A stretch of DNA of 64,000 nucleotides. Source: Minisyncoccota bacterium. GTDB taxonomy: Bacteria; Patescibacteriota; Minisyncoccia; Phycocordibacterales; SBAW01. Position 1 is the stretch's first letter; each line of letters opens with the position of its first letter. The notes under the pieces were generated by a model. It had not been told where the DNA came from and did not search any database. It saw only the letters and a program-made list of their open reading frames with translations. Positions 43,227 through 64,000 of this stretch are shown one piece after another. The stretch lies in NCBI GenBank assembly GCA_035548815.1, contig DASZSF010000005.1:115741-179740 (forward strand), read 5' to 3'. A program made the position numbers and the translations under genes.

Positions 43227-43682
43227 ATGAAAACAATCATTATTACTACCGCAGCCGCGGTACTGCTTCTTGTTGGCGGCACGTTGTGGTCGAAGAGTAT
43301 CTCAAACAGCGACCCTAATGTCGTCGCCTCAGGCGGCATACATTGGCACCCGCAGCTCACGATCTATATCAAGGGCGTGAAGCAAGATATTCCAGCGAAC
43401 CTCGGCATCGGTCCGCAATTCGCGGGCACCAACGGTTACGATCCGCAAATGCAGATGGCGGCTGTACACACCCACGAGGATCTTCCGCTCATTCATCTCG
43501 AATTCATGAGCGGTCCCGTACGCAAAGAAGATGTCACGCTCGGCCAATTCTTCAAGATATGGGGCAAGGACATGCATTCACTTGGTACGAACATGCGCAT
43601 GATGGTCAACGGTAAAGCGAACACCGATTACGAGAATTACGTCATGCATGATGGAGATAAGATAGAATTGAATTATGACTAA
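43227..43682 (+). CDS. hypothetical membrane-anchored protein (His-containing, possible metal binding)
   Basis: IHWHP, HTHED; no family recognised. Confidence 0.4.
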   Translation: MKTIIITTAAAVLLLVGGTLWSKSISNSDPNVVASGGIHWHPQLTIYIKGVKQDIPANLGIGPQFAGTNGYDPQMQMAAVHTHEDLPLIHLEFMSGPVRKEDVTLGQFFKIWGKDMHSLGTNMRMMVNGKANTDYENYVMHDGDKIELNYD

Positions 43683-45255: not shown

Positions 45256-45580
45256 TCCTCCTATCCCACCTCAAGACCCTTAAGAGCCTCCTTGTTGGCA
45301 AACCCCCTTCGCAAATCCCTGGGGTCTGCTAGGGTGCAAAGCGATAGCATAAAGTGCTATCATGTTCGTGCACAACTAAATATAAGCCGACCTAACCCCT
45401 CAGGCCTCAAAACCTCAGGATATGGTCGCAAATCCCGCTAGAGATCAAAGGACTCCTGGTCAGAGTCACTCTAGCGGGTCGTATCGGGAAACCGGTACGG
45501 GCTCGGCCGAAAGGTCGGGTCGCGATGGCCAGGAGCCTTTTGATTAGGGCTCACTCCGTCGATAAAACCCGCTAGAATTC

Positions 45581-46516
45581 ATGGAAGAAATCGCCCCCAA
45601 GAAAAAGGGTAACGTTCTCAAATGGATAGGTATCGTGTTAGGCGTTTTGGTACTTCTCGCCATTATCAGCGCAGCTGGTTCCAGTTCCTCGTCTTCGGGC
45701 GGAAGTGCTACTGTGCCGTCCGATACGGGGATTTGTGGTACTAATCCGCAGGCGCTAAAAAAAGAAGCGTTTGTTCCAAATTATAAACAGCTCGCAAAGG
45801 ATCCGAGCGTATCTCAAGGCACCGTTGCCACGTTCACCGGTCAGATAGTGCAGATTGAGCAAAGCGGCAATGAAGGCATCATGCGTCTTTCCGTCACGAA
45901 AGAATCGTACGGTTGGAGTCTTAGCGATATCGTGTACGTAACGTATCATCAGGCGACGAATGCCGTCGACGGTGACGTTGTCTCCGTTACGGGGAAATTA
46001 ACCGGAAGCCAAACATATACGTCGCAGGCAAACTTTCAGATCACTATACCGAGCATTGATGTTTGCACCGTCGATACAAAACCGGTCGTATCAGCTCAAA
46101 CGACAACTCCCAAATCAAAGACGACCACACCGACTCCAAACACTTCTTCAAATCAGTCGAGCCAGCAAACTTACACTACTCCGAGTGGCGCGACAGTGAA
46201 CAATAGCGGTAATGTCGTCACGCCGCCGCCTGCGCCTCCGGCATCGTGGCACACGGTACAGACTTTCAGCGGCCAGACGCAAAAGAACACCGCTCCATTT
46301 ACCATTCAAGGGTCGCAGTGGCGAATTAGCTGGCAAGAAACGGGCGATGGTTACTTTGGTGCCAACGCGCAGAGTCCCGATGGAAGCAACTATTGCTCCA
46401 TCGCCAATCTGGTCGGTTCCGGCTCCGACTCTACGTACTGCTATGGCTCTGGGACGTATTACGTCTCGGTCAATACCGCAAATTCTTGGACGATCACCGT
46501 CGAAGACTACTACTAG
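45581..46516 (+). CDS. hypothetical membrane-anchored Thr/Pro-rich protein
   Basis: TM after Lys-rich N-terminus; low-complexity linker. Confidence 0.45.
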   Translation: MEEIAPKKKGNVLKWIGIVLGVLVLLAIISAAGSSSSSSGGSATVPSDTGICGTNPQALKKEAFVPNYKQLAKDPSVSQGTVATFTGQIVQIEQSGNEGIMRLSVTKESYGWSLSDIVYVTYHQATNAVDGDVVSVTGKLTGSQTYTSQANFQITIPSIDVCTVDTKPVVSAQTTTPKSKTTTPTPNTSSNQSSQQTYTTPSGATVNNSGNVVTPPPAPPASWHTVQTFSGQTQKNTAPFTIQGSQWRISWQETGDGYFGANAQSPDGSNYCSIANLVGSGSDSTYCYGSGTYYVSVNTANSWTITVEDYY

Positions 46517-48231
46517 TGTCCTCGCACTCGCTGTCGCATAAGTTGGCCGTACACCTGTAGATTGTATTGGCTCATTCGTCTCGCCTCATCCTCGGCTTCT
46601 TTGCGTCTCTGTTCGCGGATGACAGCCGTCTCGAGATCAATCTTGCGCTTGCGCCATTGCTCTTGTGCGGAGAACCATTCCTGATTCGGAATCCGTCCTT
46701 GCATCCACGCCTGTCTGACATCGGCGAGCCACAGATCATTCTTTCGCAATTCGTTTTCATCTGCGGTGCCTGATAACGCGGGCTGCGACGGGAATACAAA
46801 TCCCGGCTCTGTGATTTTCGACATTATCATGTGTGCCGCGATGGCGAACGCATCGACAAGATCGTCGTGTCGTTCCGCACCGAAGTTCACGAGTTGGAGA
46901 ATTAGCTCCTCGCACCCGTGCTCGGGGAAAACGATAATACCTTCTTGAATAAGGTGCGTGATGAGCGTCAATCGCTGGCGCTTATCCTGTCCATATACCT
47001 TGAATTCTTCGGCAGGAAAACCGTCATGCCGCAGGTCCTGCGGCATTGCTCTTTGATATTGCACGGATTCGATATAGAGCGAGGTCGGGTGGCCGTTCCC
47101 CAGATAGCGCGAAAGCATTTTGAGCTTCGCACGCGCCTCGGGGAATAGGAGGCGGTCGTTGAGCGGGTATTGGTGTACGTACGCTTTCCACGCGCCTTCT
47201 CTGTTGCGGAAAAGCGAAATTGAGACGGCGGCCGTGCAATCCGCCTTCGTATCTTCCGTGATGGCTAGATCGACGCCGGTTAAAGTGACGAAGAAATCAG
47301 GGTTGCCCTCAATCGAGGGCATGTCCGCGTAGCGTTGAATCCACTCGCGCTTCACGACCGATTCTTCGTCGTCGATGATTTTCAGAAGATACTCTCGCGA
47401 CCACGTCTGTATGCTGGGCACCGTTTTACGAAGGGCTTCAATCGCCGCCGTATCAGGGAATTTCGAGAACCATGCGATCTTGCCATCCTCGATCAACGGA
47501 TACGACTTGAAAATGCCATCAAGCTGATCCTCGTCGATATCACGCCGCAAGCGCATGATGATCCCGTCGTCATGCAATCGTGTGCCGATCACGACGACTC
47601 TGGTGCCAAGGTCGCCCATAGGCACGATGTCTCCAAAAAGTTGTGTGTACAGCTTGTCCCGATTTTCTTTTACCTTCACCGACGTGAGGTCTTCGAGGTC
47701 GTCGAACACCATCAGGTCCGGCCGGAATGAGCCGTGCTTGATGCCACGAATCGATGTGTCGAGCGACACGGCGGTGATACGCGCGTCGTACTTTGGAATG
47801 ACGATGGACGTCTGCCGCCACTCGTCGTCTGGCTCATCGAACGGTCCCAGTTCGCTTTTGAGCAATTCGTTGTCAGTGAGTTCATCGGTGATGTTTTTCA
47901 TCGTTTGTCGCGCCTGCTGCTGCGTCTTGCAGACGATGAGCACGAATTTTTTCTGCTGGACGCCGATGATCGACCAGATAGGAAGGCTCGTGGCCATGAT
48001 CGTGCTTTTGGCGCTGCCACGGAACGCCTCGACGACCAGAAATTTCTTACCTTGATCCTGTGTGAGCGCGAAGAGTTCCTTTTGAAACGGCGCGGTCTTG
48101 TACTTGGCGTGGTGGCCGAGAAATGCATGGAAGAAGAACAGATGACTACGCCGCGCCGCCTCCCGACGCAGCTTCTTGTTCGTTCTGATTTGCTCCAACT
48201 CCGTCGGAGCCTTTTGCTGAATCTTTTTCAT
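46513..48231 (-). CDS. phage terminase large subunit
   Basis: Walker A EAFRGSAKST, Walker B LMVFDDLED, C-terminal RNase-H-like nuclease acidic residues (DLAITEDT ... HDDLVDAF); ATG 48231 preferred over TTG 48285. Confidence 0.8.
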   Translation of the reverse strand: MKKIQQKAPTELEQIRTNKKLRREAARRSHLFFFHAFLGHHAKYKTAPFQKELFALTQDQGKKFLVVEAFRGSAKSTIMATSLPIWSIIGVQQKKFVLIVCKTQQQARQTMKNITDELTDNELLKSELGPFDEPDDEWRQTSIVIPKYDARITAVSLDTSIRGIKHGSFRPDLMVFDDLEDLTSVKVKENRDKLYTQLFGDIVPMGDLGTRVVVIGTRLHDDGIIMRLRRDIDEDQLDGIFKSYPLIEDGKIAWFSKFPDTAAIEALRKTVPSIQTWSREYLLKIIDDEESVVKREWIQRYADMPSIEGNPDFFVTLTGVDLAITEDTKADCTAAVSISLFRNREGAWKAYVHQYPLNDRLLFPEARAKLKMLSRYLGNGHPTSLYIESVQYQRAMPQDLRHDGFPAEEFKVYGQDKRQRLTLITHLIQEGIIVFPEHGCEELILQLVNFGAERHDDLVDAFAIAAHMIMSKITEPGFVFPSQPALSGTADENELRKNDLWLADVRQAWMQGRIPNQEWFSAQEQWRKRKIDLETAVIREQRRKEAEDEARRMSQYNLQVYGQLMRQRVRGH

Positions 48232-48649
48232 GGTTATTTTCTTTATCGTTAGTAACGCTGGTAATCTCCACTGTCTCGCTTTCAAGCATCGCGAGCCCGC
48301 GTTCTACGAGCGCATCCTGCTCAGCGTCCAACGCCTCACGCTCTTCTGGGGTACGCGCGGTGATCTCGAGTTTGTCTTTGAACTTCGGGTTGCGGTGCCG
48401 CAGCCAGAATTGGATCGATGGATAATGGCGCTCCAACATGAGGGAATACAGTTGATTCTCGCCGAGGTCGTTCAGCATCGCCTCGCCCTCGGCGAGCGCG
48501 TCTTCCATTGCTTTGCGGAATTCCTCGTCTTCATCGCGCCACTTGTACACGGTCGAGCGTGCGACGCCAACTTGCTCGACGGCGGCCTGAATATTCGGGA
48601 TCTTTTTCAGATGTTCGAGAAACAAGTCTTTGATGCGATCTTTTTTCAT
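48146..48649 (-). CDS. putative terminase small subunit / HTH DNA-binding protein
   Basis: MKKDRIKDLFLEHLKKIPNIQAAVEQVGVARSTVYKWRDEDEEF HTH; immediately upstream of large terminase, 3' overlap. Confidence 0.5.
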   Translation of the reverse strand: MKKDRIKDLFLEHLKKIPNIQAAVEQVGVARSTVYKWRDEDEEFRKAMEDALAEGEAMLNDLGENQLYSLMLERHYPSIQFWLRHRNPKFKDKLEITARTPEEREALDAEQDALVERGLAMLESETVEITSVTNDKENNHEKDSAKGSDGVGANQNEQEAASGGGAA

Positions 48650-49917
48650 ACACGTTTTGCCTTCAGCTTTGTAAGTGCTTCCCATCGGCGGATGGTGAGG
48701 TCCGCAAAAAGCGGTTCGAGCTCGACCACATATGCACGACGCTTCAACATTTCCGCACTTATCAACGTGCTGCCCGACCCCGAAAAGGAATCGAGAATTA
48801 TGTCGTTCACCTTCGTGCAACGCCTAATTGCTTTCTGGTGGAGTGTCGGGGGCTTCGCGGTTGCGTGCGTGTACTCTTTGCCCGCGAGGCGCTTCACAAG
48901 CCACACGTTGAAGTGGTCGATGATGTCTTCGATGAGGCGATTGCCGGTTCCGATTTCCTTGTTCAGTACCTCGTTGAGGTTCGTGATGTTTTTAGTGAGA
49001 TGAGGTTTGCCGCGCGTCGCGTAGATGCAAGGCTCGTATGCTTTTGAAAACGCGACGCCCGGCGTCGGGTTTTGCCCGTTCTTGATCCACAGGCATACGC
49101 GACGATTTGTGAGCCCCAGTTCGGCGAAGAGTCCCTGCACGAGGCCGATCTGTGATTCATCGTTCCAATAGAAAACATGGGCGTCGTCTTTTGTGACGGC
49201 TAGAGCCGCTTCCATGCTTTGTTTCAAGAATGCGCGGTACTCGTCCGGCGTGCGCGTGTCGTTGACCTCGCCACCGTAATTCGCGCGACCGCCGACGCCG
49301 CGCGAATAATCGATCGAGAGATTATAAATCGGGTCGGAATAAACCATGGAGGCACGCTCGGAGCCGAAGAGTTTTTTGAGTACCGACGGGTCAGTCGCGT
49401 CCCCAACTGCGAGACGGTGAGGTCCGAGTTGATATACCTCACCGACCTTGCTTTTCGGTTTCTTGATGCGAGCGATTTCTTTTTCAACATCGAATCCGTC
49501 ATCTTGCGTCTCCAAAGTGCTGTCCCATGCCGCCGCGATGACCGCATCATCGACGCCGATATCCATGAGGAGTTTTGCGTCGAATGCTTTGAGCTTCTCG
49601 AAATCCCACGATCCGCCGAGAGCGTTAGACGCGACGAGGTAACGGCGCGCCTCGGCTTCGGAGAGCTGGCGCGATGGAATACGGACCGGAATCTTCTCCT
49701 CGCCGCGCCCGAGGAGTTGGAGCGCCTTGATGCGCTGGTGGCCCGCAAGGATGCGGCCATCGCTATTTATTGCGGGAATTTCCGCGAGATTGAAGCGCTC
49801 GATATTGCGCTTCAAGTCTTCGAGCTGCTTGGATGAAATTCTCCTCGGATTTTCATCATGGGGTACGAGATCGTTTACGGTGCGCTCGACCGTGGACCAG
49901 AATAATTTTTTAGCCAT
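48646..49917 (-). CDS. ParB-like nuclease domain fused to N6A/N4C DNA methyltransferase
   Basis: ParB N-domain (RISSKQLEDLKRNIERFNL...GHQRIKAL); MTase motif IV SDPIYN and motif I ILDSFSGSGST. Confidence 0.8.
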   Translation of the reverse strand: MAKKLFWSTVERTVNDLVPHDENPRRISSKQLEDLKRNIERFNLAEIPAINSDGRILAGHQRIKALQLLGRGEEKIPVRIPSRQLSEAEARRYLVASNALGGSWDFEKLKAFDAKLLMDIGVDDAVIAAAWDSTLETQDDGFDVEKEIARIKKPKSKVGEVYQLGPHRLAVGDATDPSVLKKLFGSERASMVYSDPIYNLSIDYSRGVGGRANYGGEVNDTRTPDEYRAFLKQSMEAALAVTKDDAHVFYWNDESQIGLVQGLFAELGLTNRRVCLWIKNGQNPTPGVAFSKAYEPCIYATRGKPHLTKNITNLNEVLNKEIGTGNRLIEDIIDHFNVWLVKRLAGKEYTHATAKPPTLHQKAIRRCTKVNDIILDSFSGSGSTLISAEMLKRRAYVVELEPLFADLTIRRWEALTKLKAKRV

Positions 49918-52128: not shown

Positions 52129-53043
52129 ATGAACAAAACTCTTCTGTGGTACAAACAGCGTGCACGGAGAAATTTTGGCGTGGTAAGCACTACCATGGGC
52201 ATGCTCTTGTTGCTTGTTTCACCGCTTGCTGCATTTGCACAAACCTCACGCACCTCTGCAGGAGATGCAGCACCAGCGTTCGTCGCGGCACAAGGTGCTG
52301 ATGCATCACTCAACTGGGCAGGGTATGTTGCGAACAAAAAGGGGAGTACATATACATCGGTGTCTGCGACATGGACAGTGCCAAAAATTTCAACCGCAAG
52401 CACAACAGGCAACTCCGCTGATGCAACATGGGTCGGCATCGGCGGAGTTTCGTCAGACGATTTGATTCAGGCGGGGACGCAAGCACTCGTAAACAACAAT
52501 CGCGTCACGTATCAAGCGTGGTACGAATTGTTGCCCGACTATCAGACACCAATCGCACTTGCTGTGCATGCAGGCGACTCGGTGAGTGTCTCCATACACG
52601 AAGTATCTGCCAACAATTGGGAAGTGATTTTTATAAACAACACTACGGGTCAAAAATATCAAAAAACATTTTCATACGAATCAGCACGATCGTCTGCTGA
52701 GTGGATACAAGAGATGCCGGTCGGAGGCAGCTCACGTCATCTCAGCTACATTCCCTTGGATGACTTTGGCAGCGTCACATTTGTCGGAGCGAACGCGGTC
52801 GTGGACGGAGTTGCTCATTTGCTTGGCGACCTCGAGGCCACTCCGCTCACAATGCTCGGCACTCGTTCGCAAACGCTCGCAGTGCCATCGAAATTGCATG
52901 CCGACGGATCGAGCTTCTCTGTTGCTCGCACACAAGGAAATAATTTTTCATCAACTGTGCGTACACGTAGTGCGCATCCCATCGATCGAGATGTATATCA
53001 AACCAGCAACGGTACCACTGTCATCAAAGTGATGGTATGGTAA
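52129..53043 (+). CDS. secreted peptidase G1 (eqolisin / scytalidoglutamic peptidase-like)
   Basis: signal peptide; SLNWAGYV, WVGIGG, LIQAGT, YQAWYELLPD, AEWIQEMP in family order. Confidence 0.6.
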   Translation: MNKTLLWYKQRARRNFGVVSTTMGMLLLLVSPLAAFAQTSRTSAGDAAPAFVAAQGADASLNWAGYVANKKGSTYTSVSATWTVPKISTASTTGNSADATWVGIGGVSSDDLIQAGTQALVNNNRVTYQAWYELLPDYQTPIALAVHAGDSVSVSIHEVSANNWEVIFINNTTGQKYQKTFSYESARSSAEWIQEMPVGGSSRHLSYIPLDDFGSVTFVGANAVVDGVAHLLGDLEATPLTMLGTRSQTLAVPSKLHADGSSFSVARTQGNNFSSTVRTRSAHPIDRDVYQTSNGTTVIKVMVW

Positions 53044-53767: not shown

Positions 53768-56700
53768 TTGCAACAGGGCAATCGCGATCGCGATATGCCT
53801 TTTTCTTTTTTACAACCAACAAAAAACACTGTCCCGCATGCGGGACGTTCTTTGTTGTACAAGGGAATAATTCTTGTACTCATGTGCGCACTCACATGTT
53901 CGTCTTTTTCAATTCCTGCACGTGCAGCGGGCGCTCCTCCGACGATTATTTCGTACCAAGGCCGTCTCACCGATGGAAGTGGAAATTTACTTGGAGATTT
54001 GGGCACAACGTACTATCTGAAATTTTCTATTTGGGATAGTCCGACCGTGGGTGCGGGTAATCGTGTGTGGCCAACGACAACAAGCGTTGCAACGACGAGC
54101 GTTACGGTGACGCAAGGCCTCTTCACCGTTAACATTGGCGACACTGCGAACGGATATCCAACTGCGCTTAACTTGAACGTCGCAAACAATACGCAGCTCT
54201 ATTTGCAGGTGGAAGTTTCTGCGGATAACAATTCGTCTGAAACGTTGTCTCCACGCCAGCAACTCACATCGTCCGTATTCTCGCTCCTTTCGAGTGCAGT
54301 TGTCGGTACAACGACACCGTCGCTCTTTGGAACCACAACCCCGATAGGTTCATCGTTCATCACAGCGCAAGCAACAAGCGCGACGTCCATCCCACTGACA
54401 CTTGCAGGCACTTCAGGACAGACAGCGAATCTTTTCCAAGTTTTGAATAATTCTCTTTCGAACTTGTTTTCGATATCCAGCAACGGTACTGTCACCTTTG
54501 CGACGCTGACGTCAGGTTTGCATGCAGCATCACCAAGCGGTGCTGTGTACTCTGCGGCGACATCATCGCTTTCACTGTCGGGACCGTTCTCCGGGTTTGC
54601 ATCGCTCGGCGCACTTGTCGGCGGTTCGAACTCAACGATAACGTGGACCGGCCTTGCAACGACATCACAACCATCATCAAGCAACCTGCTTGTTTCAAAC
54701 GGAGGAGCGGGTGTGTACGGCGTCGCAACATCGACGCTCACTGCGTCGTCGCCACTCACTGGATCATTCACTGTGCTGGGAAGCGGCGGAAGTTTGGGAT
54801 GCCAAACTGCAAACGGTTCGCAAGCAGGATGTCTTTCGTCGGCAGACTGGACGACATTCAACAGCAAATCGAGTTTTGCATACCCGTTCAACATTGCCGG
54901 AAATGCAACCTCAACACTGACACAGTTCAACGGGGGACTTACTGCGTACGCGTCAACAACCATCGGCAACGGCGGCCAAGGCAGTGGCTTGACCATCAAC
55001 GGAGGCGCGACGACAACAGGAAATGCATACGTGAACGGGAACCTTACGGTGGGCACTACGGGAGCACTCGTTGCAAGTGCAGGTAATATAGTTCATCAAG
55101 TTGGTAACTTCCAATTCTACAATTCTACCATTGTCGTTCCAAGCGGTGCCTCTATTATTCCAAGCAACAACATCAGAACGTTTACGTTCTATGGGAACCC
55201 AACCTATTCAACCGGCAACGGTCTGGATTTTACGGCAGGGGACCCGGGTAATGCAGTGACTGTAAGCGCTTCGACAAACTATGGTTCGCCCGATATGAAT
55301 GTATCCATCGCGTTCCTCCCTAAAGGTGCGGGCAACATCGGTATTGCTACCTCCTCGCCCTTCGCCAAACTTTCGGTCGCGGGTTCAGCATACATCGGAG
55401 GCAATCTGACCGCGACGGGCACTCTCGCGGTTGCTGGCATCAGCACGTTTTCGAGCAATATCGGCGTGGGCACGACCTCACCGTGGAAGATGTTGTCAGT
55501 GGGCACGGGCACCACCGGCACTTTCGTCATTGCAACCTCAACCGCAGGCTGCGCACAGTTCAGTGCTTTTGGTGAACTCTACTCGACGGGTTCAAACTGT
55601 GGTGGAGGATCGCTTACAGGTACCACCGGTCAGATTCCGTGGTTCAGCGGCACGAACACCGCAGTGGGCACATCATCGTTGTTCCTCAACTCGTCTACAG
55701 GGAACTTCGGCATTGGAACCACATCGCCGCTTGCGAAACTTGATGTTTTTGGCAACGTAACCTTGTCTGGCTCAAGTCGCTATTTGAACTTCGGCGCGAC
55801 CTCGACCGCCGGTATTGGTTCAACTGGCTATGGTCTTCGTGATAATGCCGGTGTCCTTGAGTTCAAGAACTCCGGTGGTTCATGGCAAGGTGTGTCATCG
55901 GTTGCAACAAGCGGACCGGCCTTCTCCGTGGATAAAAATGGCACTGACCAAACAATTTCAACAGCCACATATACACCTCTCACTTGGTCTCACGAAATCT
56001 TCGACACCAACAACAACTTCGACACGGGGACCGGCCGATTCACTCCAACAGTGCCGGGCAAGTATCTCATTAAGCTCAATGTGTACTGTGGCGCAGTTTC
56101 TAGCTGCTACGCAGGTATCGCAAAAAACGGTTCTGCCCTGGCAAACATAGTTTCGCAGACAGGCTCCCAAGGGAACGTCACCATTGCGACGGCGGTCGCT
56201 ATCGTCGACATGAATGGTACGACGGACTACATCGTAGGCGACGGCTATTCGGATGTAAGCACAACTATTGTTGGTACGGTTATCAATACCAACTTCTCAG
56301 GTGCTCTCATTGCCCCCGTCAGCGCGGGTACGGTCAACGGCACAGGTTCAAATGGTCAGATCACCTTCTGGAACAGTGCAAACTCAGCAACAGGCGACGC
56401 CGACTTCGTCTGGGACAGCACCAACAGCCGCCTTGGCATCGGCACCTCATCGCCATGGGCAAAGCTTTCGGTTGTTACGGATGCAACTACTGGTCCAGGC
56501 AGTGTCGTCGATGCAAGTTCAATCACGGACGGAGTGGGTCTGCGCCTTGAGTTCAATAGCTCAACGATGACCACCAACGGCCGTGTCTTCAGCATTGTCG
56601 ACAAAGCTTTCAACAGCACCTTCTTCGAAGTCAACGAAAACGGTCAGACCGGCATCCGCACCTTCGGCAACCTCGGTAGCAACTTCTCATCACTCACGGT

Positions 56701-58828
56701 TGCAACGGGCTTCGACAGCTTCACGGGCATCTCAGTGCGCGCCAACAGCGGTTCGCAGACTGGCAACTTGCAAGAATGGCAGGATTCGTCAGGCAATCCG
56801 CTGGTGGTTGTGGACCCGACGGGAAAGGTTGGCGTCGGTACCTCAACTCCTCACTGGAACCTCCAAGTCGCCGGCACGCGTCCGTCATTCGCGCTCTCAG
56901 ACACATCGGCAGGCACAAACTTGAAACACTGGGTCTTCTCATCGATGGGCGGCAACCTCTACATCGGTACCTCAACCGATGCGTTCGGCACGTCGAGCCC
57001 TGCAGTCTTCTCAATCTCAAGCACGGGTTCAACGACTGCAGCAAACGGCATCAACATCAACAACGGCTGCTTTGCTATCAAAGGTGCGTGTATCGGCTAC
57101 ACGGTGAAGCTTGCAGCTGTATATGCGACTTCGACTGCGGGTACGAATGCAACAGTCCAGTTCACCGGCGCACCAGGCAGTGCTCCGAGCTTTGCTACAG
57201 GGGCGCCGGGCACGCTCACCCTTCCATCCAACACCTCATATATTGTTGTTGAAACCCGCGGTGGTGGTGGCGGTGGTGGTAACAACGGTAGCACGAGCGC
57301 AATCAAAGCAGCCGGCGGCGGCGGCCAAGGTGGATACTCGCGCGCACTTATCAAAGCGCCTACCGGCACCTACAAGTACACCGTTGGCTTGGGCGGCGCT
57401 GGCGGTACAGGTACCGGAGCAGTAACAGGCACCGCAGGCGGCGCAAGCTGCTTTGGCACTAACGCAACCGCATGTACGTCGTCTTCAGTGCAAGCAGCGG
57501 GCGGTTCAGGAGGCGTTGGAACTAACTCTGCAGGAGCAATTTCAGGGGGCGCTGGCGGTTCGTCGGCAGCGGTAGGTACTGTCGGTGATTACGAAGAAGA
57601 CGGTGCTCCCGGAGGTGACAGCAGTGCAGCAACAAACGGTATCCAAAGCGGTGCCGGAGGCGGCCAAGGCGGAGGTCTCGGACGCACTACTTCAGGCAAT
57701 GGTAACCCTGGTATAAACGGCGGCGGCGGCTCAGGCGGCTTGCTTACAGCAGCAGCTGCTACACAAGAAACCGGCGGCAAGGGCGGCGACGGCGTCCTTA
57801 TCATATCCGTCTACGCAACGTCGTCTGCAAACGCAACAGGCAACGACTATGCTGAAATGTTCCCAGTTTCCGACTCGTCAATTTCTTCAGGCGACATCGT
57901 CGCAGTCGACAACACGACTCCAGTTTCGATGCGCATGGCACGAGGAGGCGAGCATGCGTCGCTTGCAGGCATCGTCTCAACTGCACCAGGCCAGATCCTT
58001 GGCGATGCGTCAGCACCAGGTCAAAAACCGATCGCGTTCTCTGGTCGCGTTCCGACCAAGGTCAACCTGGAGAACGGTCCTATTCATGTCGGTGACCGCA
58101 TCGCGCCGTCATTCGTTGCTGGGGTTGGTAAGAAGGCGGGTCCTCTGGATGACTCGGTCGGTATCGCGCTTGAAGCATACGATGGCACATCTGATTCCAA
58201 TCAGATATTGGTATTCCTCGATCTTCACCAAGGTATTGATATAAGCTCGCTTGCAGGACAGCTCTTCTCGTCCGAAGTGCTTCAGAATATATCAAGCTCT
58301 CTCCCTATTGATTCGACATCAACTTCTGCATCGATGCTCATGGGTACGACTAGCCCTGAAACAGGCACGGACTTTGTTGGCGCCATCTTTGGCGCCATCA
58401 TCGCTCGCATGCAAAACTTCGGGATCTTTATTACAAAAACGGCAACCCACATCACGACCCTTATGGTGAGTCACTTTACGGTCGGCTCGTCTGATGCGCC
58501 TGAAGGGATCACCATTTACGACAGACAAGGCCGCGCAGGGTGTCTTATTGCTGATGATGTAACAACAGGCAAGATGCAATTGCTTGAAGGCATGTGCGGT
58601 ACACAAACCGCGAGCGTAGGAAATGCTACATTGCAAGATGGCGGAGGAAATGACAACGATACTGGCACCAGCACGCCTGCTGTGGAGCCTATTGGCCAAA
58701 ACAGCAGCGACACCGCTACGAGCACGTCTTCTGATATAGGCGCTGGAAGCGACGAGCCTGCGACACCAGACACTCCAAGCGACACGGGCAACTCTGACAT
58801 GGCATCATCAACTGACACCGGAGTCTAG
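53768..58828 (+). CDS. giant (1686 aa) secreted surface protein with Thr/Ser/Gly-rich beta-repeats and phage tail-fibre-like glycine-rich domain
   Basis: signal peptide; YIVVETRGGGGGGGNNG...AAGGGGQGG...GLGGAGGTG glycine-rich segment; conserved C-terminal globular domain. Confidence 0.75.
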   Translation: MQQGNRDRDMPFSFLQPTKNTVPHAGRSLLYKGIILVLMCALTCSSFSIPARAAGAPPTIISYQGRLTDGSGNLLGDLGTTYYLKFSIWDSPTVGAGNRVWPTTTSVATTSVTVTQGLFTVNIGDTANGYPTALNLNVANNTQLYLQVEVSADNNSSETLSPRQQLTSSVFSLLSSAVVGTTTPSLFGTTTPIGSSFITAQATSATSIPLTLAGTSGQTANLFQVLNNSLSNLFSISSNGTVTFATLTSGLHAASPSGAVYSAATSSLSLSGPFSGFASLGALVGGSNSTITWTGLATTSQPSSSNLLVSNGGAGVYGVATSTLTASSPLTGSFTVLGSGGSLGCQTANGSQAGCLSSADWTTFNSKSSFAYPFNIAGNATSTLTQFNGGLTAYASTTIGNGGQGSGLTINGGATTTGNAYVNGNLTVGTTGALVASAGNIVHQVGNFQFYNSTIVVPSGASIIPSNNIRTFTFYGNPTYSTGNGLDFTAGDPGNAVTVSASTNYGSPDMNVSIAFLPKGAGNIGIATSSPFAKLSVAGSAYIGGNLTATGTLAVAGISTFSSNIGVGTTSPWKMLSVGTGTTGTFVIATSTAGCAQFSAFGELYSTGSNCGGGSLTGTTGQIPWFSGTNTAVGTSSLFLNSSTGNFGIGTTSPLAKLDVFGNVTLSGSSRYLNFGATSTAGIGSTGYGLRDNAGVLEFKNSGGSWQGVSSVATSGPAFSVDKNGTDQTISTATYTPLTWSHEIFDTNNNFDTGTGRFTPTVPGKYLIKLNVYCGAVSSCYAGIAKNGSALANIVSQTGSQGNVTIATAVAIVDMNGTTDYIVGDGYSDVSTTIVGTVINTNFSGALIAPVSAGTVNGTGSNGQITFWNSANSATGDADFVWDSTNSRLGIGTSSPWAKLSVVTDATTGPGSVVDASSITDGVGLRLEFNSSTMTTNGRVFSIVDKAFNSTFFEVNENGQTGIRTFGNLGSNFSSLTVATGFDSFTGISVRANSGSQTGNLQEWQDSSGNPLVVVDPTGKVGVGTSTPHWNLQVAGTRPSFALSDTSAGTNLKHWVFSSMGGNLYIGTSTDAFGTSSPAVFSISSTGSTTAANGININNGCFAIKGACIGYTVKLAAVYATSTAGTNATVQFTGAPGSAPSFATGAPGTLTLPSNTSYIVVETRGGGGGGGNNGSTSAIKAAGGGGQGGYSRALIKAPTGTYKYTVGLGGAGGTGTGAVTGTAGGASCFGTNATACTSSSVQAAGGSGGVGTNSAGAISGGAGGSSAAVGTVGDYEEDGAPGGDSSAATNGIQSGAGGGQGGGLGRTTSGNGNPGINGGGGSGGLLTAAAATQETGGKGGDGVLIISVYATSSANATGNDYAEMFPVSDSSISSGDIVAVDNTTPVSMRMARGGEHASLAGIVSTAPGQILGDASAPGQKPIAFSGRVPTKVNLENGPIHVGDRIAPSFVAGVGKKAGPLDDSVGIALEAYDGTSDSNQILVFLDLHQGIDISSLAGQLFSSEVLQNISSSLPIDSTSTSASMLMGTTSPETGTDFVGAIFGAIIARMQNFGIFITKTATHITTLMVSHFTVGSSDAPEGITIYDRQGRAGCLIADDVTTGKMQLLEGMCGTQTASVGNATLQDGGGNDNDTGTSTPAVEPIGQNSSDTATSTSSDIGAGSDEPATPDTPSDTGNSDMASSTDTGV

Positions 58829-59815
58829 TTACATGTTTTGGTATGCGAGCGATGATAGATCCTCGATAATTGAAAGAAGGGACTCAAAATTTGAACCTTG
58901 AGTCATGACGCAGATGATATATGGGTTCGGGTCTTTGTATACGATGCCACAGTCATGAAGTTCGCGGATTGGTCCTGCCGACGATATGGTTTCGCGTTCG
59001 CCAAATTTGTGAGATACGATCACATCTTGCGGCAGCAACGCAGCAAGTCCTTTAAAGGAAGAGCTGCTCATAAGCGAAAGTACCGCCTGCGATGAGTCGC
59101 GATTAAGGTACGAAGCATTATAAAGTATGCGCAGTATACCTGCATACGTCTTGGCGGTCATGTAGTCGACCGTATTTTGGTTGACAGGCAGCGTAATGCC
59201 AAGGTCGACGATTGTTTGCTTGAAAATATCTGGATTTATTTGTGACTGTAAAAGAGTTGCTGCGGCATTGTCCGAGTCTACCATCATCCGCGTAAGAAGA
59301 TCAGATACGGTGTAGGTGCCAGGGCTCAGTGTTTCTGGCGCTGCAAAGTGCTCTATATATTGTGACTTTGCGCCATTGTATGAAAGTTTTGCCGAAAATA
59401 TCGACGGGTCGAGGCTGCGTATTTTGTAGTAGGTGATAAGCAGTGGCAGCTTCATCAGCGAGGCTGGCGTATAGGTTTCGTTTTCGTTACTTGCTGCCCA
59501 CTGCTGGCTTACAAGATCACGAATGAAGATTGAAATGCGTTTTGCTTTGCCTTCTTTTACATACAGATCAGTTGTGGAATCGAGCAATATGTCGAGCGAA
59601 CGCAGACGTTCCGTCGTATCGTCGAGCGTGACACAGCCGATACTGCGACTGATAAGAGGATATTGGTCATGACAGTTATCGCGCGCACGTTTTGCAACGA
59701 CATAGGCGCGCGTGCCGGTTACGACATAGATAAAAAAAAGCAGACCGGCGCCGGCGACAACACCAAGCACGACATAGCGCCAATGAGACTTAATACCACG
59801 TGAGAACTCCTTCAT
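58829..59815 (-). CDS. class A beta-lactamase-like serine hydrolase, membrane-anchored
   Basis: SxxK (ASLMK), SDN (VDSDNAAA), xxG triad (HKFG); N-terminal TM. Confidence 0.75.
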   Translation of the reverse strand: MKEFSRGIKSHWRYVVLGVVAGAGLLFFIYVVTGTRAYVVAKRARDNCHDQYPLISRSIGCVTLDDTTERLRSLDILLDSTTDLYVKEGKAKRISIFIRDLVSQQWAASNENETYTPASLMKLPLLITYYKIRSLDPSIFSAKLSYNGAKSQYIEHFAAPETLSPGTYTVSDLLTRMMVDSDNAAATLLQSQINPDIFKQTIVDLGITLPVNQNTVDYMTAKTYAGILRILYNASYLNRDSSQAVLSLMSSSSFKGLAALLPQDVIVSHKFGERETISSAGPIRELHDCGIVYKDPNPYIICVMTQGSNFESLLSIIEDLSSLAYQNM

Positions 59816-59843: not shown

Positions 59844-60890
59844 ATGTCGAGGTTGTTCTTTGCTCTATATATAGTGTTTGCGCTTGTTGCTACGTACACC
59901 GCGAGCGTCCCAGCATATGCGGATGTAACTTCAACGCACTATAGAATTGAAAATCCAACAATTAGTCCCGGCGGCACAGGTTCGTCAGCAAGCTACAAAC
60001 TTTCAGGCACGGCAGGCGAGACTGCGCACAATGGTGGGTCAGCTTCAAGTTATCGATTACAGCTCGGGTTCTTCTCGTTCCCGGTCGTAACAGCGCCGGT
60101 ACTATCGGTGCAGGTCGGAAATGCGAACGGCCGGGCGGATCTTTCGTGGAGCGCCGCCATTCCATATTTGGGATACACGGTTTCGGCGTATAAAGTCGGC
60201 TACGCAACCGCGTCGGGAGGACCCTACACATATATATCGGTAGGCAATGTGCTTGCGTACGATGTGGGGTCGCTGGTGAACGGTACGCCATACTACTTTA
60301 TTGTTACTGCGCTCGACAATGCGAGCATCACAATAGCGACCTCAAGCGAGGTGACCGCGACACCAGTGGCGCCGTCCCTTACATTTGTTATAGACTCAGG
60401 CACTCAAGCATTGCCAAACTTAACGCCAGGCACGCTCACGTCGACCTCGAGTATTTTGAGTATCAAAACGAATAACCCGACAGGCTTTGTCACGACCCTT
60501 GCACGTTCAAACGTAAATAACACGCTGTTATTAAACACGGATTCGAGCGTTGCGATACCCGACAAGACTGACTGGACTGCACCACCAGCCACGACGACAA
60601 ACGGCTCCGCATCGGCGTCAACAACCCAGCCTCTGACACTTCAATTCCGCCTATGGAAGGCTATGACCGATTCGGCAAACTATTCAACAAACTGGTGGGG
60701 AGCTGACGACACAACATCGGGTGCATTATTTGCGGGCATACCATCAACAACGCAAGCGATTTCGAATCGTTCAGTGTCAGCAGTGTCGACGACTACCACT
60801 CGTGTGTTGTATGACCTGAACGTTCCAAACAGCCAAAAGAACGGCACCTATAGCGGCGATGTTGTATATACCGTTACCGTCAATCCATGA
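59844..60890 (+). CDS. secreted protein: FN3-like domain + C-terminal WxL-like domain (paralogue 1)
   Basis: signal peptide; C-terminal TNWWGADD...LFAGI...GTYSGDVVYTVTVNP shared with next gene. Confidence 0.45.
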   Translation: MSRLFFALYIVFALVATYTASVPAYADVTSTHYRIENPTISPGGTGSSASYKLSGTAGETAHNGGSASSYRLQLGFFSFPVVTAPVLSVQVGNANGRADLSWSAAIPYLGYTVSAYKVGYATASGGPYTYISVGNVLAYDVGSLVNGTPYYFIVTALDNASITIATSSEVTATPVAPSLTFVIDSGTQALPNLTPGTLTSTSSILSIKTNNPTGFVTTLARSNVNNTLLLNTDSSVAIPDKTDWTAPPATTTNGSASASTTQPLTLQFRLWKAMTDSANYSTNWWGADDTTSGALFAGIPSTTQAISNRSVSAVSTTTTRVLYDLNVPNSQKNGTYSGDVVYTVTVNP

Positions 60891-60966: not shown

Positions 60967-61671
60967 TTGATGAACCCCTTTTCGATTTCTTTTTCATATG
61001 TGCATCGAATTGATAGGACAGACTTTGCCAAGTCGTTTATAGCAACAGCGCTTCTTTTTGGCGTTTTCGTATTAGCCATTCAGGCGTACGCATCGACGGT
61101 AACCCTTTCAGTTGTAGTTCAAACCTCCCTTACCTTTACAAGTACGACCGACAACTTCACCACCATAACGCCAGGGACTCCCGTATACGCCACGACGACT
61201 CTTTCAGTGCTCACGAACGATTCAAGCGGTTATAACGTTACGCTTTCGGGCGACAATAAGAGCACGAGCAATAACAACTTGCAGCTATCGGGCAACACAT
61301 CGGTGCAGATCACCGACCAGACCGAATGGGTACCGAACGCTGCCACATCAAGTCCGGGCAATGCCGTCGCTGTTGCTAGCTTCACGAACTCGGGCAATGT
61401 ACTTGCATTCCGAGTCATGAGCGCTTCGTCGACAAATGGTGCGGGCTTCCTTTCGACGTCATGGTGGGGAACGGCCGACTACTCTTCCTCAAACTCGCTG
61501 TGGGCAGGTATTTCAAGCTCAACTGTAGCTCGTCGTATTGGCAATGCGGGCTCAGGCACGTATAGTTCATCTGCGCATTTAAACAGCGTTCAATACTACT
61601 TGAATGTCTCAAGCAGCCAACAGACCGGTACCTACAACGCACCTATTACCTATACCGCCACAGGCAATTAA
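60967..61671 (+). CDS. secreted WxL-like domain protein (paralogue 2)
   Basis: STSWWGTAD...LWAGI...GTYNAPITYTATGN; signal peptide. Confidence 0.45.
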   Translation: MMNPFSISFSYVHRIDRTDFAKSFIATALLFGVFVLAIQAYASTVTLSVVVQTSLTFTSTTDNFTTITPGTPVYATTTLSVLTNDSSGYNVTLSGDNKSTSNNNLQLSGNTSVQITDQTEWVPNAATSSPGNAVAVASFTNSGNVLAFRVMSASSTNGAGFLSTSWWGTADYSSSNSLWAGISSSTVARRIGNAGSGTYSSSAHLNSVQYYLNVSSSQQTGTYNAPITYTATGN

Positions 61672-61675
61672 CGCT

Positions 61676-62587
61676 ATGGTACTGCGGCGACTGGCATATA
61701 TAACCGCTACAGGCGTCGCCCTCCTTCTATATGGATTTTCATTTGTGCCTGCGCTTGCAGCAACGGGCCTTTCTATACAACCGGTCAAGATAGATCAAAC
61801 ACTTAACCCAGGCGACGTGCTCGATGGCAGCATTTTGCTTTCCAATGCAAGCGATGGTCCGGTAAATGTTGAACTGAGCCTACAGGATTTCGTGCCCACA
61901 GCGGGAGCTGATGGTATTCAGTTCATCGGCCGCACGGAGGGAGTGACGAGTGTCATCGATTGGATCCATGTCGAGACCAAACCAACGTTCTCTCTGGATG
62001 TCGGCGAACAGATTAGCATCCCGTACACCATTACAGCGCCTCAAAATGCTGAACCAGGTAGCCACTTGGGAGTTATTTTGTTCAAAGCTGCACCAAAAAA
62101 CGCTGTGGCAGGCAGTCTTAAGGTTGGTACGCAGGTTGGAACGCTTGTAATGATCGCAATTCCGGGCAACCACCTTGAAAAAGGAAATATACTCGACTTT
62201 ACAGTGCCTCTATTTTCTCAAAAAGGGCCGATCCCATTTGATATAAAATTCCAAAACACCGGCACCGTCCATTTCGAGCCGAAAGGATCGATTGTCATCC
62301 GCAATATGTTTGGGCAGAAGGCTGGCGAAGTGCCCATTACTGGTCAAGTTGCACTTCCAACGAGCGTAAAAGAACTTAAATTCGCATGGAATCCGGGAGC
62401 GTTTGCGCTTGGGCGTTACACTGCGAGCGCAACTATCTACGACGGCGAAGGAGATGCGCTTACGTCCCGTGAAGTGAGTTTCTACGTAGTTCCTGTGTGG
62501 TATATCATCGGATTCCTCGTAGTAATTACATTGATCTACCTCCTCTTGCGCTACCTCAAACGACACGTACGTCTGACCTTGCAATAG
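61676..62587 (+). CDS. DUF916/DUF3324-like cell-surface protein with C-terminal TM anchor (CscA-like)
   Basis: GLSIQPVKIDQTLNPGDVLDGSILLSNASDGPVNVELSLQDF; C-terminal VWYIIGFLVVITLIYLLLRYLKRH. Confidence 0.55.
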   Translation: MVLRRLAYITATGVALLLYGFSFVPALAATGLSIQPVKIDQTLNPGDVLDGSILLSNASDGPVNVELSLQDFVPTAGADGIQFIGRTEGVTSVIDWIHVETKPTFSLDVGEQISIPYTITAPQNAEPGSHLGVILFKAAPKNAVAGSLKVGTQVGTLVMIAIPGNHLEKGNILDFTVPLFSQKGPIPFDIKFQNTGTVHFEPKGSIVIRNMFGQKAGEVPITGQVALPTSVKELKFAWNPGAFALGRYTASATIYDGEGDALTSREVSFYVVPVWYIIGFLVVITLIYLLLRYLKRHVRLTLQ

Positions 62588-62593
62588 ACTGCC

Positions 62594-63181
62594 ATGAATG
62601 GCCCACGCCTTGGCACAGCAATTCTTATTGGTCTGGCATTATGCCTCATGGCATATGGATTTCGCATCATTACAGCGACGGGCACTGTTGATGTTCGGCA
62701 TCTATTGTCGGCCACCGATATGCTGGTGGTATATGTATCTAACCCAAGCTGTGAAGCAAATGCAGGAACCGTGTGCCAGTCAGATCAAAACATGTGTGGG
62801 CAGATCAATTCAGGAATCTTTTTGTGCGACGGGACATGCTCGGCAGTGACTCCGCCTGATTCGCAGTGTCCGGTTGAACCTCCACCAAACACTGGAGGTG
62901 GCGGAGGCGGGGGTGGCGGAGGCCCGATAGTTGCCGTCACACCTCCTACGCCTACTCCTATGACGCCCGAAGATGAAACAGCGCTTCGGTGCACTGAGCG
63001 AAGAAAAATCGGCGACTTTAACTGCAGCGGCAGGGTAGACATACAGGACTTCAGCATCCTTGCATATTGGTTTAAACGACCGCTTACAGACCTGGCATAT
63101 GCGACGGGGGTGGACTTAAATCATGACCAAAAAGCGACTCTCGCGGATTTCAGCATCCTCGCATATTATTGGGGGAAATAG
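62594..63181 (+). CDS. secreted Cys-rich protein with poly-Gly linker and two dockerin-type Ca-binding repeats
   Basis: DFNCSGRVDIQDFSILAYWF and DLNHDQKATLADFSILAYYW match type-I dockerin repeat pattern. Confidence 0.6.
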   Translation: MNGPRLGTAILIGLALCLMAYGFRIITATGTVDVRHLLSATDMLVVYVSNPSCEANAGTVCQSDQNMCGQINSGIFLCDGTCSAVTPPDSQCPVEPPPNTGGGGGGGGGGPIVAVTPPTPTPMTPEDETALRCTERRKIGDFNCSGRVDIQDFSILAYWFKRPLTDLAYATGVDLNHDQKATLADFSILAYYWGK

Positions 63182-63184
63182 AGT

Positions 63185-63736
63185 ATGAAGATATACAGCA
63201 TTTTTGCCACCGTTGCGCTATTCATTCCCGCCGTTGCGTCTGCGGCGACGCTTTCGTTTGATCCGCCTCATGCGCATGTGAAAGCAGGGGACGCTATTTC
63301 GTTTAGCGTTATGTTGAGCGCAGACGACAGTATTAATGCTGTAGGAACTGCGGTGCAGGTCCCTGCGGGACTCTCATTTATTTCCTCTTCCAAGGGAAAT
63401 GTATTTACGCAATGGGTAGAAACTCCCAGTTTTGATGCGAAGACGAGCACTGTTGAATTTTCGGGGATAATGACAGGAGGTTGGACAGGCAAAGACCAAG
63501 TGCTCGCAACTATTACCCTGAAGGCACAGCAGGATGGGGACTATACGCTTGTGTATGACCCTTCGCAGACAGAATTGTATAAGAACGATGGAAAGGCGAC
63601 TCCGGATACGGTGACGTTCGGCACTATAGCGACACCCCTTGCGGGCCGTGTACTTCTTGGCTTGGTCGCTGCGTTCGCCGCCGTACTCTTGTTCTTCTTA
63701 CTGCTGCGACGAAAAGTAATGGTACGATTTGTCTAA
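63185..63736 (+). CDS. cohesin-like domain protein with C-terminal TM anchor
   Basis: ATLSFDPPHAHVKAGDAISFSVMLSADDSINAVGTAVQVPAGLSFIS beta-sandwich pattern; C-terminal TM + RRK. Confidence 0.55.
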   Translation: MKIYSIFATVALFIPAVASAATLSFDPPHAHVKAGDAISFSVMLSADDSINAVGTAVQVPAGLSFISSSKGNVFTQWVETPSFDAKTSTVEFSGIMTGGWTGKDQVLATITLKAQQDGDYTLVYDPSQTELYKNDGKATPDTVTFGTIATPLAGRVLLGLVAAFAAVLLFFLLLRRKVMVRFV

Positions 63737-64000
63737 TGCGATTTCTTCGGCATGCCTGTTTTTGTCTTGTGTTGCTGCTGGCACTGCCAGTTGCGGCACA
63801 CGCTGCAACGCTGACGTTTGGCGGCCCTGTTCAGGTGATGGTCGGCGACATGGTGAGCGTGCCGGTATTGCTTTCAACTTCCGGAAGTGAGAGCGCGAAT
63901 GCCGTCTCTGCAACCATTAGCTACTCGACCAACCTGCTGACACTCGTCTCTATTTCCAAAGCTCAAAGTATTATCACGCTGTGGGCTCAAGAGCCCACTA
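63736..64000 (+). CDS. second cohesin-like protein, 3'-truncated by window end
   Basis: ATG overlaps previous stop (TAATG); ATLTFGGPVQVMVGDMVSVPVLLSTSGSESANAVSATISYSTNLLTLVSIS. Confidence 0.45.
   Translation, partial: MRFLRHACFCLVLLLALPVAAHAATLTFGGPVQVMVGDMVSVPVLLSTSGSESANAVSATISYSTNLLTLVSISKAQSIITLWAQEPT

Follow-up and report, generated by a model that had tools for sequence, protein, structure and literature searches.

The last 4.2 kb of the 64,000-nucleotide stretch of the Minisyncoccota bacterium contig DASZSF010000005.1 analysed here (the window) are filled by six tightly spaced genes on the + strand, as delimited by open reading frame (ORF) calls. From 5' to 3' they encode two pilin-like proteins (pil1 and pil2), a chaperone-like protein, a dockerin protein and two cohesins, termed cohesin 1 and cohesin 2 (Table 1). 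The successive junctions between the pil2, chaperone, dockerin, cohesin 1 and cohesin 2 genes measure 4, 6, 3 and -1 nucleotides and the gap between pil1 and pil2 is about 80 nucleotides. The six genes form one tightly spaced operon which is kept across the Paceibacteria, and the dockerin and two cohesin genes make up the 3' half of this pilus-like operon. These three genes had been singled out in an earlier, sequence-only reading of the window, which described start codons overlapping the preceding stops. Such an overlap is found between cohesin 1 and cohesin 2 (TAATG, 1 nucleotide) but not between the dockerin and cohesin 1 genes, which lie 3 nucleotides apart. The window ends within the cohesin 2 gene and the only other contig found to have the identical genes (L001) ends at about the same point, just past the cohesin 1 gene; orthologous loci stand in for the sequence past the window end. 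A scan for promoters and terminators was uninformative.

Table 1. Positions of the operon genes, of features within the dockerin protein and of the cohesin 2 orthologues that carry a coiled-coil tail. Positions are those of the window, except in the last row, where they refer to the contigs named.
Feature	Position	Strand	Description
pil1	59844..60890	+	348 amino acids, secreted; candidate tip subunit
pil2	60970..61671	+	233 amino acids, secreted; candidate shaft subunit
Chaperone-like protein, membrane-anchored	61676..62587	+	303 amino acids
Dockerin protein	62594..63181	+	195 amino acids, exported
N-terminal hydrophobic segment, residues 5-29	62606..62680	+	hydropathy scan
Strand-like motif DMLVVYVSNP, residues 41-50, candidate donor strand	62714..62743	+	L-x-V-x-V spacing as in the pil2 N-terminal strand
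Cys-rich head	62750..62869	+	six Cys at residues 53/61/68/78/82/92
Poly-Gly linker	62894..62923	+	10 Gly, residues 101-110
Dockerin domain, residues 139-195	63008..63178	+	loop 1 63014-63049, loop 2 63113-63148
Cohesin 1	63185..63736	+	183 amino acids; signal peptide residues 1-20, cohesin-fold domain residues ~21-135, transmembrane helix residues ~150-175, short basic tail
Cohesin 2	63736..64000	+	first 88 amino acids (signal peptide and the beginning of the cohesin domain); truncated at the window end
Cohesin 2 orthologues with coiled-coil tail	L005 5872-6813, L006 6400-7347, L002 8803-9972, L068 9781-11460		

The dockerin protein and the two cohesins

Judging by its sequence, the protein encoded directly after the chaperone gene ends in a genuine non-cellulosomal dockerin. 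Two tandem EF-hand-type segments were found, each with a loop of 12 residues followed by a helix. The loops are DFNCSGRVDIQD (residues 141-152) and DLNHDQKATLAD (residues 174-185), and the helices that follow them, DFSILAYWF and DFSILAYYW, are nearly identical. At ligand positions 1, 3, 5, 9 and 12 the residues are D, N, S, D and D in loop 1 and D, N, D, T and D in loop 2, which places a Ser at position 5 of the first loop and a Thr at position 9 of the second; loop 2 also has Gln for the usual Gly at position 6. EF-hands accept Ser and Thr as ligands. The loops appear slightly degenerate and non-canonical yet compatible with putative Ca2+ binding. The two dockerin-type repeats of the sequence-only reading were upheld in that both loops align with solved dockerins, with the qualification that some ligand positions hold Ser or Thr and not Asp or Asn.

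A search of the PDB with the 60-residue dockerin segment alone returned solved dockerins only (2vn5_B at E 0.001, 4wi0_B and 2y3n_B), with both loops in register, and a profile of 39 operon-encoded dockerin relatives reached the B. cellulosolvens dockerin 2y3n_B at 6e-7. Dockerin_1 is the sole Pfam match of the window protein (E 0.0043) and its 17.6 bits lie below the gathering score of 22.9 bits (PF00404). The orthologue in L002, which is 55% identical, is above this threshold with 24.0 bits, and distant relatives sharing the FSILAYWFKRPLT signature score 30-45 bits with the same model (P0003 45.2, P0006 42.6, P0004 36.2 and L024 30.4). An identical dockerin protein is annotated in NCBI as 'hypothetical protein'.

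The 195-residue ORF was found to have an N-terminal hydrophobic segment and the Cys-rich head, with six Cys, and run of 10 Gly that had been described for a secreted protein at this position, and a Pro/Thr linker joins the Gly run to the dockerin loops. The hydrophobic segment may be either a signal peptide, with a possible cleavage site between A-T-G and T read by eye, or an uncleaved anchor. In the wider family the general build is a signal peptide, a short strand (TLTVTV, NLTVTI or VLSVTV type), variable modules, poly-Gly, usually two immunoglobulin-like (Ig-like) domains and the dockerin. A long Gly run is present in 34 of the 39 family members, and many of them combine variable N-terminal modules (Cys-rich CxDGxDNDxD-type segments, FN3) with Ig-like stalks. 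The Cys-rich head of the window protein is kept only in its close clade. We also noticed that Cys133 and Cys144 (C-x10-C, 62990-63025) bracket loop 1, where Cys-Ser replaces the usual x-Asp. This pair is kept in the window clade (L002, L005 and L006) and absent in other members of the family, and it may form a disulfide which substitutes part of the metal site.

Cohesin 1 was matched nearly end to end by the Pfam Cohesin model (PF00963; model positions 8-137 of 139, E 0.0027, 18.3 bits) and the fragment of cohesin 2 was matched with E 6.6e-4 and 20.3 bits, both below the gathering score of 24.1 bits. All eight cohesin 2 orthologues scanned are above it, with 26.3-38.3 bits. The Dockerin_1 and Cohesin models therefore match all three window proteins named in the sequence-only reading below their gathering scores, whereas cohesin 2 and dockerin orthologues exceed them. 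The AlphaFold model of cohesin 1, built from an alignment of four sequences, has a mean predicted local distance difference test score (pLDDT) of 75, with 80-94 in the domain, and consists of a beta-sandwich followed by a long C-terminal helix. When this model was compared with the PDB by Foldseek, almost all of the best 30 matches were cohesins, with 2xdh at the top (E 8.6e-5, TM-score 0.66, root-mean-square deviation 3.7) and type II cohesins next. The predicted fold is that of a cohesin-type beta-sandwich, in support of the fold that had been proposed for this protein.

In addition, a profile of 38 cohesin 1 orthologues matched R. flavefaciens cohesins (5aoz, 2.7e-5), and BLASTP gave 29% identity (E 3e-12) between cohesin 1 and the cohesin domain in the second cohesin of L002. 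An identical cohesin 1 is named 'cohesin domain-containing protein' in NCBI. A single-sequence search of the PDB with cohesin 1 gave noise only, and most cohesin 1 orthologues have no Pfam Cohesin match (2 of 38 matched at E<0.01). The typical protein of this family has two sandwiches and a C-terminal transmembrane helix.

The cohesin 2 fragment is 53% identical to the 389-residue orthologue in L002. Both cohesins had been said to carry C-terminal membrane anchors, and that of cohesin 1 lies in the window, in a hydrophobic helix at residues ~147-183. That of cohesin 2 falls outside it and was observed in the orthologues of 226-389 residues in L002, L004, L005 and L006. In its nearest relatives cohesin 2 has 313-389 residues and is laid out as a cohesin domain, a Ser/Thr/Pro linker, a transmembrane helix and a conserved cytoplasmic coiled coil of about 70 residues with the consensus IHExFxELRDAVxKEMLAFQKAKTKRxLTEEEExFLERFKKLLDKTEKSIEKE. 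An exhaustive search with the cohesin profile returned 4,559 cluster representatives at E<=1e-3, and Pfam Cohesin, the commonest Pfam family among the 100 relatives scanned, was found in 41 of them (E<=0.001). Many relatives of 600-900 residues (P0138, P0139, P0142-P0146 and others) match the cohesin profile in two separate stretches and thus have two cohesin domains; these proteins may be natural fusions of two adjacent cohesin genes.

The upstream genes and the conservation of the operon

The chaperone-like protein has a signal peptide, two beta-sandwich domains and a C-terminal transmembrane helix (residues 274-297). Its AlphaFold2 model, made from 80 sequences, has a pLDDT of 86.9. The best Foldseek match of this model in the PDB is the E. 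faecium WxLIP 9i25_C (4.8e-11; also 9i1y), followed by CfaA 4y2o (2.9e-10) and then by Caf1M, CsuC, FimC and RbmA. On the strength of this model, gene 3 is predicted to encode a membrane-tethered chaperone of the PapD/WxLIP fold. The protein has no Pfam or NCBIfam family, including no WxLIP match, and an identical protein in NCBI is annotated 'hypothetical protein'. A word-index search found 299 homologues, and among the matches listed none has a Pfam domain. Homologues with 25-27% identity were also observed in metagenome-assembled genomes of Clostridia (L071, 7102-12555) and Actinomycetota (L072 and L074), and these relatives weakly match Pfam WxLIP_PGBD (E 2e-3 to 5e-3). This hints that the Pam-type chaperones of candidate phyla radiation (CPR) bacteria and the WxLIP proteins of Firmicutes are one superfamily. 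In L071, which has two chaperone homologues, a weak cohesin-like protein (E 0.0038) is located about 1.4 kb downstream of the second.

The first two genes of the operon appear from their sequences to encode pilin-like proteins whose similarity to the CPR Pam pilins is weak but consistent. The Pam pilus was described in the CPR bacterium Ca. Mycosynbacter amalyticus by Troman et al. (bioRxiv 10.64898/2026.03.03.709456). In pil2, a signal peptide is followed by a mature N-terminal strand, STVTLSVVV in the window, and a domain resembling the Pam pilin C-terminal domain. The NCBIfam model of this domain (NF058581, CPR_Pam_pilin_C) matches pil2 over positions 3-147 of 148 (E 4.5e-4, 20.3 bits, with a cut-off of 55). 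It also matches 32 of the 44 pil2 family members at E<=0.01, the best at 7.8e-7 and all under the 55-bit cut-off. The comparison of the family shows that the mature N-terminus, A-V-T-L-T-V-T-V, directly precedes the Pam-type domain and that this strand, with L in 43/44 and V/I in 44/44 members, is the most conserved short stretch of pil2.

The larger pil1 begins with a PamT-like region, carries an FN3-like domain and ends in a pilin-type domain; the strand found ahead of this domain in pil2 is missing. Its C-terminal domain aligned with pil2 from residue 51 of the latter (BLASTP, 39% identity, E 4e-21). NF058579 (CPR_pilus_PamT) matched three of the four pil1 orthologues scanned over about 100 N-terminal residues with E 1.6e-8 to 7.6e-7, far under its cut-off of 240 bits, and the NCBIfam scan gave no match for the window pil1 or for the chaperone, the dockerin protein and the cohesins. 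The Pfam scan gave no WxL match in pil1 or pil2. A single-sequence search of the PDB with pil2 returned noise only and the pil2 family profile returned nothing, so that sequence reveals no solved relative of the Pam or WxL kind.

The order of the six genes was found to be identical in four Logan contigs (L002, L004, L005 and L006), which also share the upstream genes for a giant surface protein and a beta-lactamase-like protein and the downstream TPR, MurJ and LepA genes. A scan based on the chaperone alignment, with one genome per GTDB species, gave 78 loci, of which 52 have a close chaperone (E<1e-80). The 39 of these with at least 3.5 kb of downstream sequence, almost all from species-representative genomes, were annotated with local hidden Markov models (HMMs) built from orthologues. 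The gene following the chaperone is the dockerin gene in 34 of the 39 loci, and the chaperone, dockerin, cohesin and cohesin genes occur in this order in 33. The module had been called self-contained, which does not hold: its genes are the tail of a six-gene operon whose order is kept in these 33 loci.

The chaperone loci belong, going by record titles, to Adler-, Kaiser-, Taylor-, Sung-, Ryan- and Portnoybacteria and other Parcubacteria/Paceibacterota, and in a WWE3 genome (L068) the chaperone, dockerin and cohesin are likewise present. In the exceptions inspected (L021 and L028) the operon ends after the chaperone, with the dockerin and both cohesins missing together. At 8916-9473 of L021, a type IV pilin-like gene with a GFTLIELLVV N-terminus replaces the dockerin and cohesin genes after the chaperone. 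In CPR loci that are farther removed, the genes beside the chaperone homologue give better matches to the Pam pilin model (E 1e-10 to 1e-6), and their lengths are PamA-like.

A proposed role at the base of a surface fibre

We propose that a chaperone-assembled, Pam-like surface fibre has the dockerin protein and the cohesins as its attachment module on the cell-proximal side, a reading to which we give an even chance. In Pam pili, the neighbouring pilin on the distal side has its C-terminal domain filled by a linker strand, and for PamR of the Saccharimonadia, which has its own transmembrane helix, a role in terminating and anchoring the pilus through the insertion of its N-terminal strand has been proposed (bioRxiv 10.64898/2026.03.03.709456). 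The same logic can be applied to the proteins of the window operon. Because pil1 has an acceptor domain without a donor strand it would form the tip, and pil2, which has both a donor strand and an acceptor domain, would form the shaft. With a candidate donor strand and without an acceptor domain, the dockerin protein could only be the last, cell-proximal subunit. The strand near its mature N-terminus would fill the C-terminal domain left open in the last pilin and the protein would cap the base of the fibre, with the poly-Gly and Ig-like spacers bridging the envelope. Its dockerin would bind one or both cohesins, presumably with Ca2+, and this would hold the protein at the membrane, where the two cohesins would serve as its sockets. 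The job proposed for PamR would in this way be split between a soluble adaptor and membrane cohesins. The near-identical helices of the dockerin fit a dual binding mode or the use of both cohesins, and the coiled-coil tail of the cohesin 2 orthologues suggests a link from the fibre base to the cell interior.

The evidence for the donor strand comes from the wider family. Most dockerin proteins start, straight after the signal peptide, with a TLTVTV-type strand like that at the N-terminus of pil2. Over the first 80 residues, a matrix of the pil2 strand scored a median of 4.7 bits for the 39 dockerin proteins, compared with -3.8 for cohesin 1, -2.6 for the chaperone and 1.5 for cohesin 2 (p 2e-8, 2e-10 and 6e-3 respectively). 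Furthermore, the pilin of the WWE3 locus L068 has a PamA-like layout with an internal linker, AVSLTVDPSLSFTV, to which the mature N-terminus of the dockerin protein next to it, TVSFSVSVPDTRVTF, is similar.

Several points weigh against this assignment. Both the binding of the dockerin to a cohesin and the insertion of the strand are steps that we infer, the former from genetic linkage. Every match to a Pam model is under the NCBI cut-off, and pil2 does not have the N-terminal sandwich of PamA/B. The strand of the window dockerin protein is divergent: it keeps the L-x-V-x-V spacing only, is placed about 15 residues beyond the probable site of cleavage and gets a poor score from the pil2 matrix. 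This matrix also gives some signal in the N-termini of cohesin 2 (the median of 1.5 bits given above). Alternating hydrophobic strands are common among beta-rich proteins. The dockerin proteins of some species are long and multi-domain (1473 residues in L023) and these could be adhesins in their own right. The presence of two cohesins is also not accounted for by the model. No fusion of a pilin domain with a dockerin, of the Rosetta-stone kind, was found. A pil1 signal in the dockerin protein of L016 was set aside, as the sequences judged by eye indicate that it is apparently an FN3 domain and not a pilin domain.

These observations leave room for other arrangements of the same proteins. The membrane cohesins might display the dockerin protein itself as an adhesin, with its head outward to bind a host or a surface and with the pilin and chaperone genes merely co-expressed neighbours. 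The identities of the cohesins and the dockerin, which were confirmed, agree with such a display, the variable N-terminal modules and Ig-like stalks of many family members recall fibrillar adhesins, and the epibiont Southlakia has an essential dockerin-domain protein (PMC10633639). Nevertheless, the sole N-terminal element found family-wide is a short strand resembling a pilin donor strand, the Cys-rich head of the window protein is limited to its clade, and the fixed place of the dockerin gene directly after the chaperone in 34 of the 39 loci argues for a shared assembly. We consider the display of an adhesin to be rather unlikely, though it is the alternative we take most seriously. The role in host or surface adhesion suggested by the sequence-only reading remains plausible and would be exerted more likely via a pilus-like fibre than via the Cys-rich head, which is not conserved in the wider family.

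The other two alternatives concern how the subunits are joined. If the chaperone-like protein acted as a WxLIP, it could hold pil2 and pil1 by hairpin insertion in a non-polymeric WxL-type surface complex, with the cohesin-dockerin pair tethering an extra component and with no pilus. Its best structural match is indeed the E. faecium WxLIP noted above, its non-CPR relatives weakly match WxLIP_PGBD, and WxL clusters are described as having the same three-gene logic of a small domain-only protein, a large protein with that domain at its C-terminus and a two-domain transmembrane protein (PMC10599100). However, pil1 and pil2 have no Pfam WxL match, while Pam pilin models match pil1 orthologues and the pil2 family. 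Pam pilins polymerise by strand donation according to cryo-electron microscopy (bioRxiv 10.64898/2026.03.03.709456), and the conserved free strand and acceptor-type domain of pil2 are the layout of a self-polymerising subunit, which makes the non-polymeric complex unlikely. It is more improbable still that the likeness of the proteins to dockerin and cohesin is confined to the fold and that no binding takes place between them, with the EF-hand pair acting for example as a Ca2+ sensor or a wall-binding module and the sandwiches as assembly-platform or spacer proteins like PamR. The scores of the three window proteins under the Pfam thresholds, the few Cohesin matches among the cohesin 1 proteins (2/38), the non-canonical Ca2+ loops and the PamR-like layout of the typical cohesin 1, with its two sandwiches and C-terminal transmembrane helix, would all agree with such a lack of binding. 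It is opposed by the joint gain and loss of the dockerin and cohesins across loci, by the predominance of cohesins among the structural matches and by the near-identical dockerin helices, which are found as well in 2vn6, a dockerin with a dual binding mode. This entry is among the fold matches of cohesin 1, and its dockerin chain aligns with the window dockerin.

Returning to the fibre-base assignment, we extend it tentatively, and with less confidence than the assignment itself, to the Paceibacteria and at least one WWE3 genome. In these a donor-strand pilus would be fixed to the cytoplasmic membrane by a non-covalent cohesin-dockerin joint, with the dockerin protein as the terminator and with cohesin 2 tying the base to the cytoplasmic coiled coil. 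If true, the joint would be, to our knowledge, the first case of a cohesin-dockerin pair that anchors a pilus, and it would stand in for PamR as a modular replacement.

Comparison with known systems and neighbouring genes

The window system resembles the Pam system in having an operon of secreted Ig-like pilins; those of Pam polymerise by donor-strand exchange, as is proposed here for the window proteins. PamC and PamD are FimC/PapD-like chaperones with a C-terminal transmembrane helix (bioRxiv 10.64898/2026.03.03.709456), and the membrane-anchored window chaperone is likewise PapD/FimC-like with such a helix. The tip subunit has no donor strand in Pam and neither has pil1, and the insertion of an N-terminal strand into the last pilin by the Pam base anchor is what is proposed here for the dockerin protein. 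A tail-fibre-like protein is a constant neighbour of pam operons (bioRxiv 10.64898/2026.03.03.709456) and a large tail-fibre-like gene is located near the window operon.

The two systems also differ. A nine-strand N-terminal sandwich, together with a linker strand and the C-terminal domain, makes up the major pilin of Pam, whereas pil2 has the signal peptide, the strand and the C-terminal domain only; the full layout was observed in more distant loci, such as L068. The window operon has a single chaperone gene, and its pil2, with 20.3 bits, is under the 55-bit cut-off for the Pam C-terminal domain. PamR, which was compared by description only, has two FnIII domains, a transmembrane helix at the C-terminus and a strand at the N-terminus, and its place would be taken here by the dockerin protein and two transmembrane cohesins, which besides the chaperone are the only membrane-anchored sandwich proteins of the operon. 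Pam pilins occur mostly in Saccharimonadia and Microgenomatia and neither cohesin nor dockerin is mentioned in the Pam preprint (bioRxiv 10.64898/2026.03.03.709456); the lineage of the window system is that of the Paceibacteria.

Among cellulosomal systems, the closest parallel is with the type II anchoring pairs (C. thermocellum SdbA and A. cellulolyticus ScaB), where a cell-bound cohesin holds a dockerin-bearing extracellular assembly as would be the case here, and type II cohesins are among the best structural matches of cohesin 1. Cellulosomal anchoring scaffoldins use S-layer homology (SLH) repeats or sortase. The window cohesin is instead anchored by a transmembrane helix, there is no X-module, and the cargo is apparently a fibre and not an enzyme complex. 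Neither in the operon nor among its neighbours did the Pfam scan of the window proteins and the genes around the relatives reveal a glycoside hydrolase, a carbohydrate-binding module or a multi-cohesin scaffoldin. A cellulosome context was therefore ruled out, as the sequence-only reading had it, and the downstream genes in the relatives are those for TPR, MurJ and LepA. Single cohesin modules outside a cellulosome are also represented by 2xdh of Archaeoglobus fulgidus and by the cohesin-like 2jh2 and 2vo8 of Clostridium perfringens. As judged by the titles of these PDB entries, the window cohesins differ from them in belonging to a pilus/chaperone operon as a transmembrane-anchored pair beside their own dockerin.

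The chaperone fold matches link the window operon to the chaperone-usher pili (Pap/Fim, CFA/I, Caf1 and Csu). In these pili, the tip has no donor strand, the shaft subunits are self-complementing and a terminator (PapH) is located at the base, which is the logic proposed here. Unlike these pili, the window system has no usher and no outer membrane, its chaperone is membrane-tethered and its proposed terminator would rest on a cohesin-dockerin joint. The WxL clusters of Firmicutes (WxL together with WxLIP, which is DUF916-DUF3324-TM) are similar in having a small protein, a large protein and a two-domain transmembrane protein, and the portion of their description consulted mentions no cohesin or dockerin (PMC10599100). 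The window proteins differ in having no WxL motif and no Pfam WxL or WxLIP match, with the likeness to WxLIP seen at the fold level only.

Cohesins and dockerins outside cellulosomes are already known and cohesin 1 is already annotated as a cohesin domain protein. A literature search on cohesin or dockerin with CPR, Parcubacteria or Patescibacteria found nothing on this operon or on a link to a CPR pilus operon. The CPR/Patescibacteria are thought to be host-attached, and their surface fibres are leading candidates for making contact with the host. The description of the Pam pilus dates only from 2026, and the present locus suggests that a related chaperone-assembled fibre system is widespread in the Paceibacteria, the largest CPR class, and that this system recruited a cohesin-dockerin pair as a fixed component. 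Such pairs are best known from cellulosomes and may serve more generally as plug-in fibre anchors in bacteria without an outer membrane. The reading offers a concrete, testable function for the large CPR cohesin family represented by the 4,559 clusters.

Upstream of the operon, the gene at 53768-58828 (+) encodes a surface protein of 1686 residues with Pfam Gly_rich_2 (2e-7) and C1q (2.5e-6) matches, and a giant gene occupies the same place in L001-L006. It is followed at 58829-59815 (-) by a gene for a protein like class A beta-lactamases (PF13354, 3.5e-29) that has a membrane segment at its N-terminus; in most syntenic loci this gene is on the strand opposite to the operon and in L002 it is present in two copies. 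Further upstream, a terminase-like protein (Terminase_6C 22.5 bits, cut-off 22.6) is encoded near an N6/N4 DNA methylase (46513-48285 and 48646-49917, both on the - strand), and this pair may be a prophage remnant. A LOOT RNA (Rfam RF03000) was found at 45389-45521 (+) with 73.3 bits, compared with a gathering score of 46.4. The window also encodes a Peptidase_A4 (eqolisin-type) protein at 52129-53043 (+; 1.1e-39) and a multicopper oxidase with three domains at 43675-45255 (+), both of which we judge to be unusual in a reduced CPR genome.

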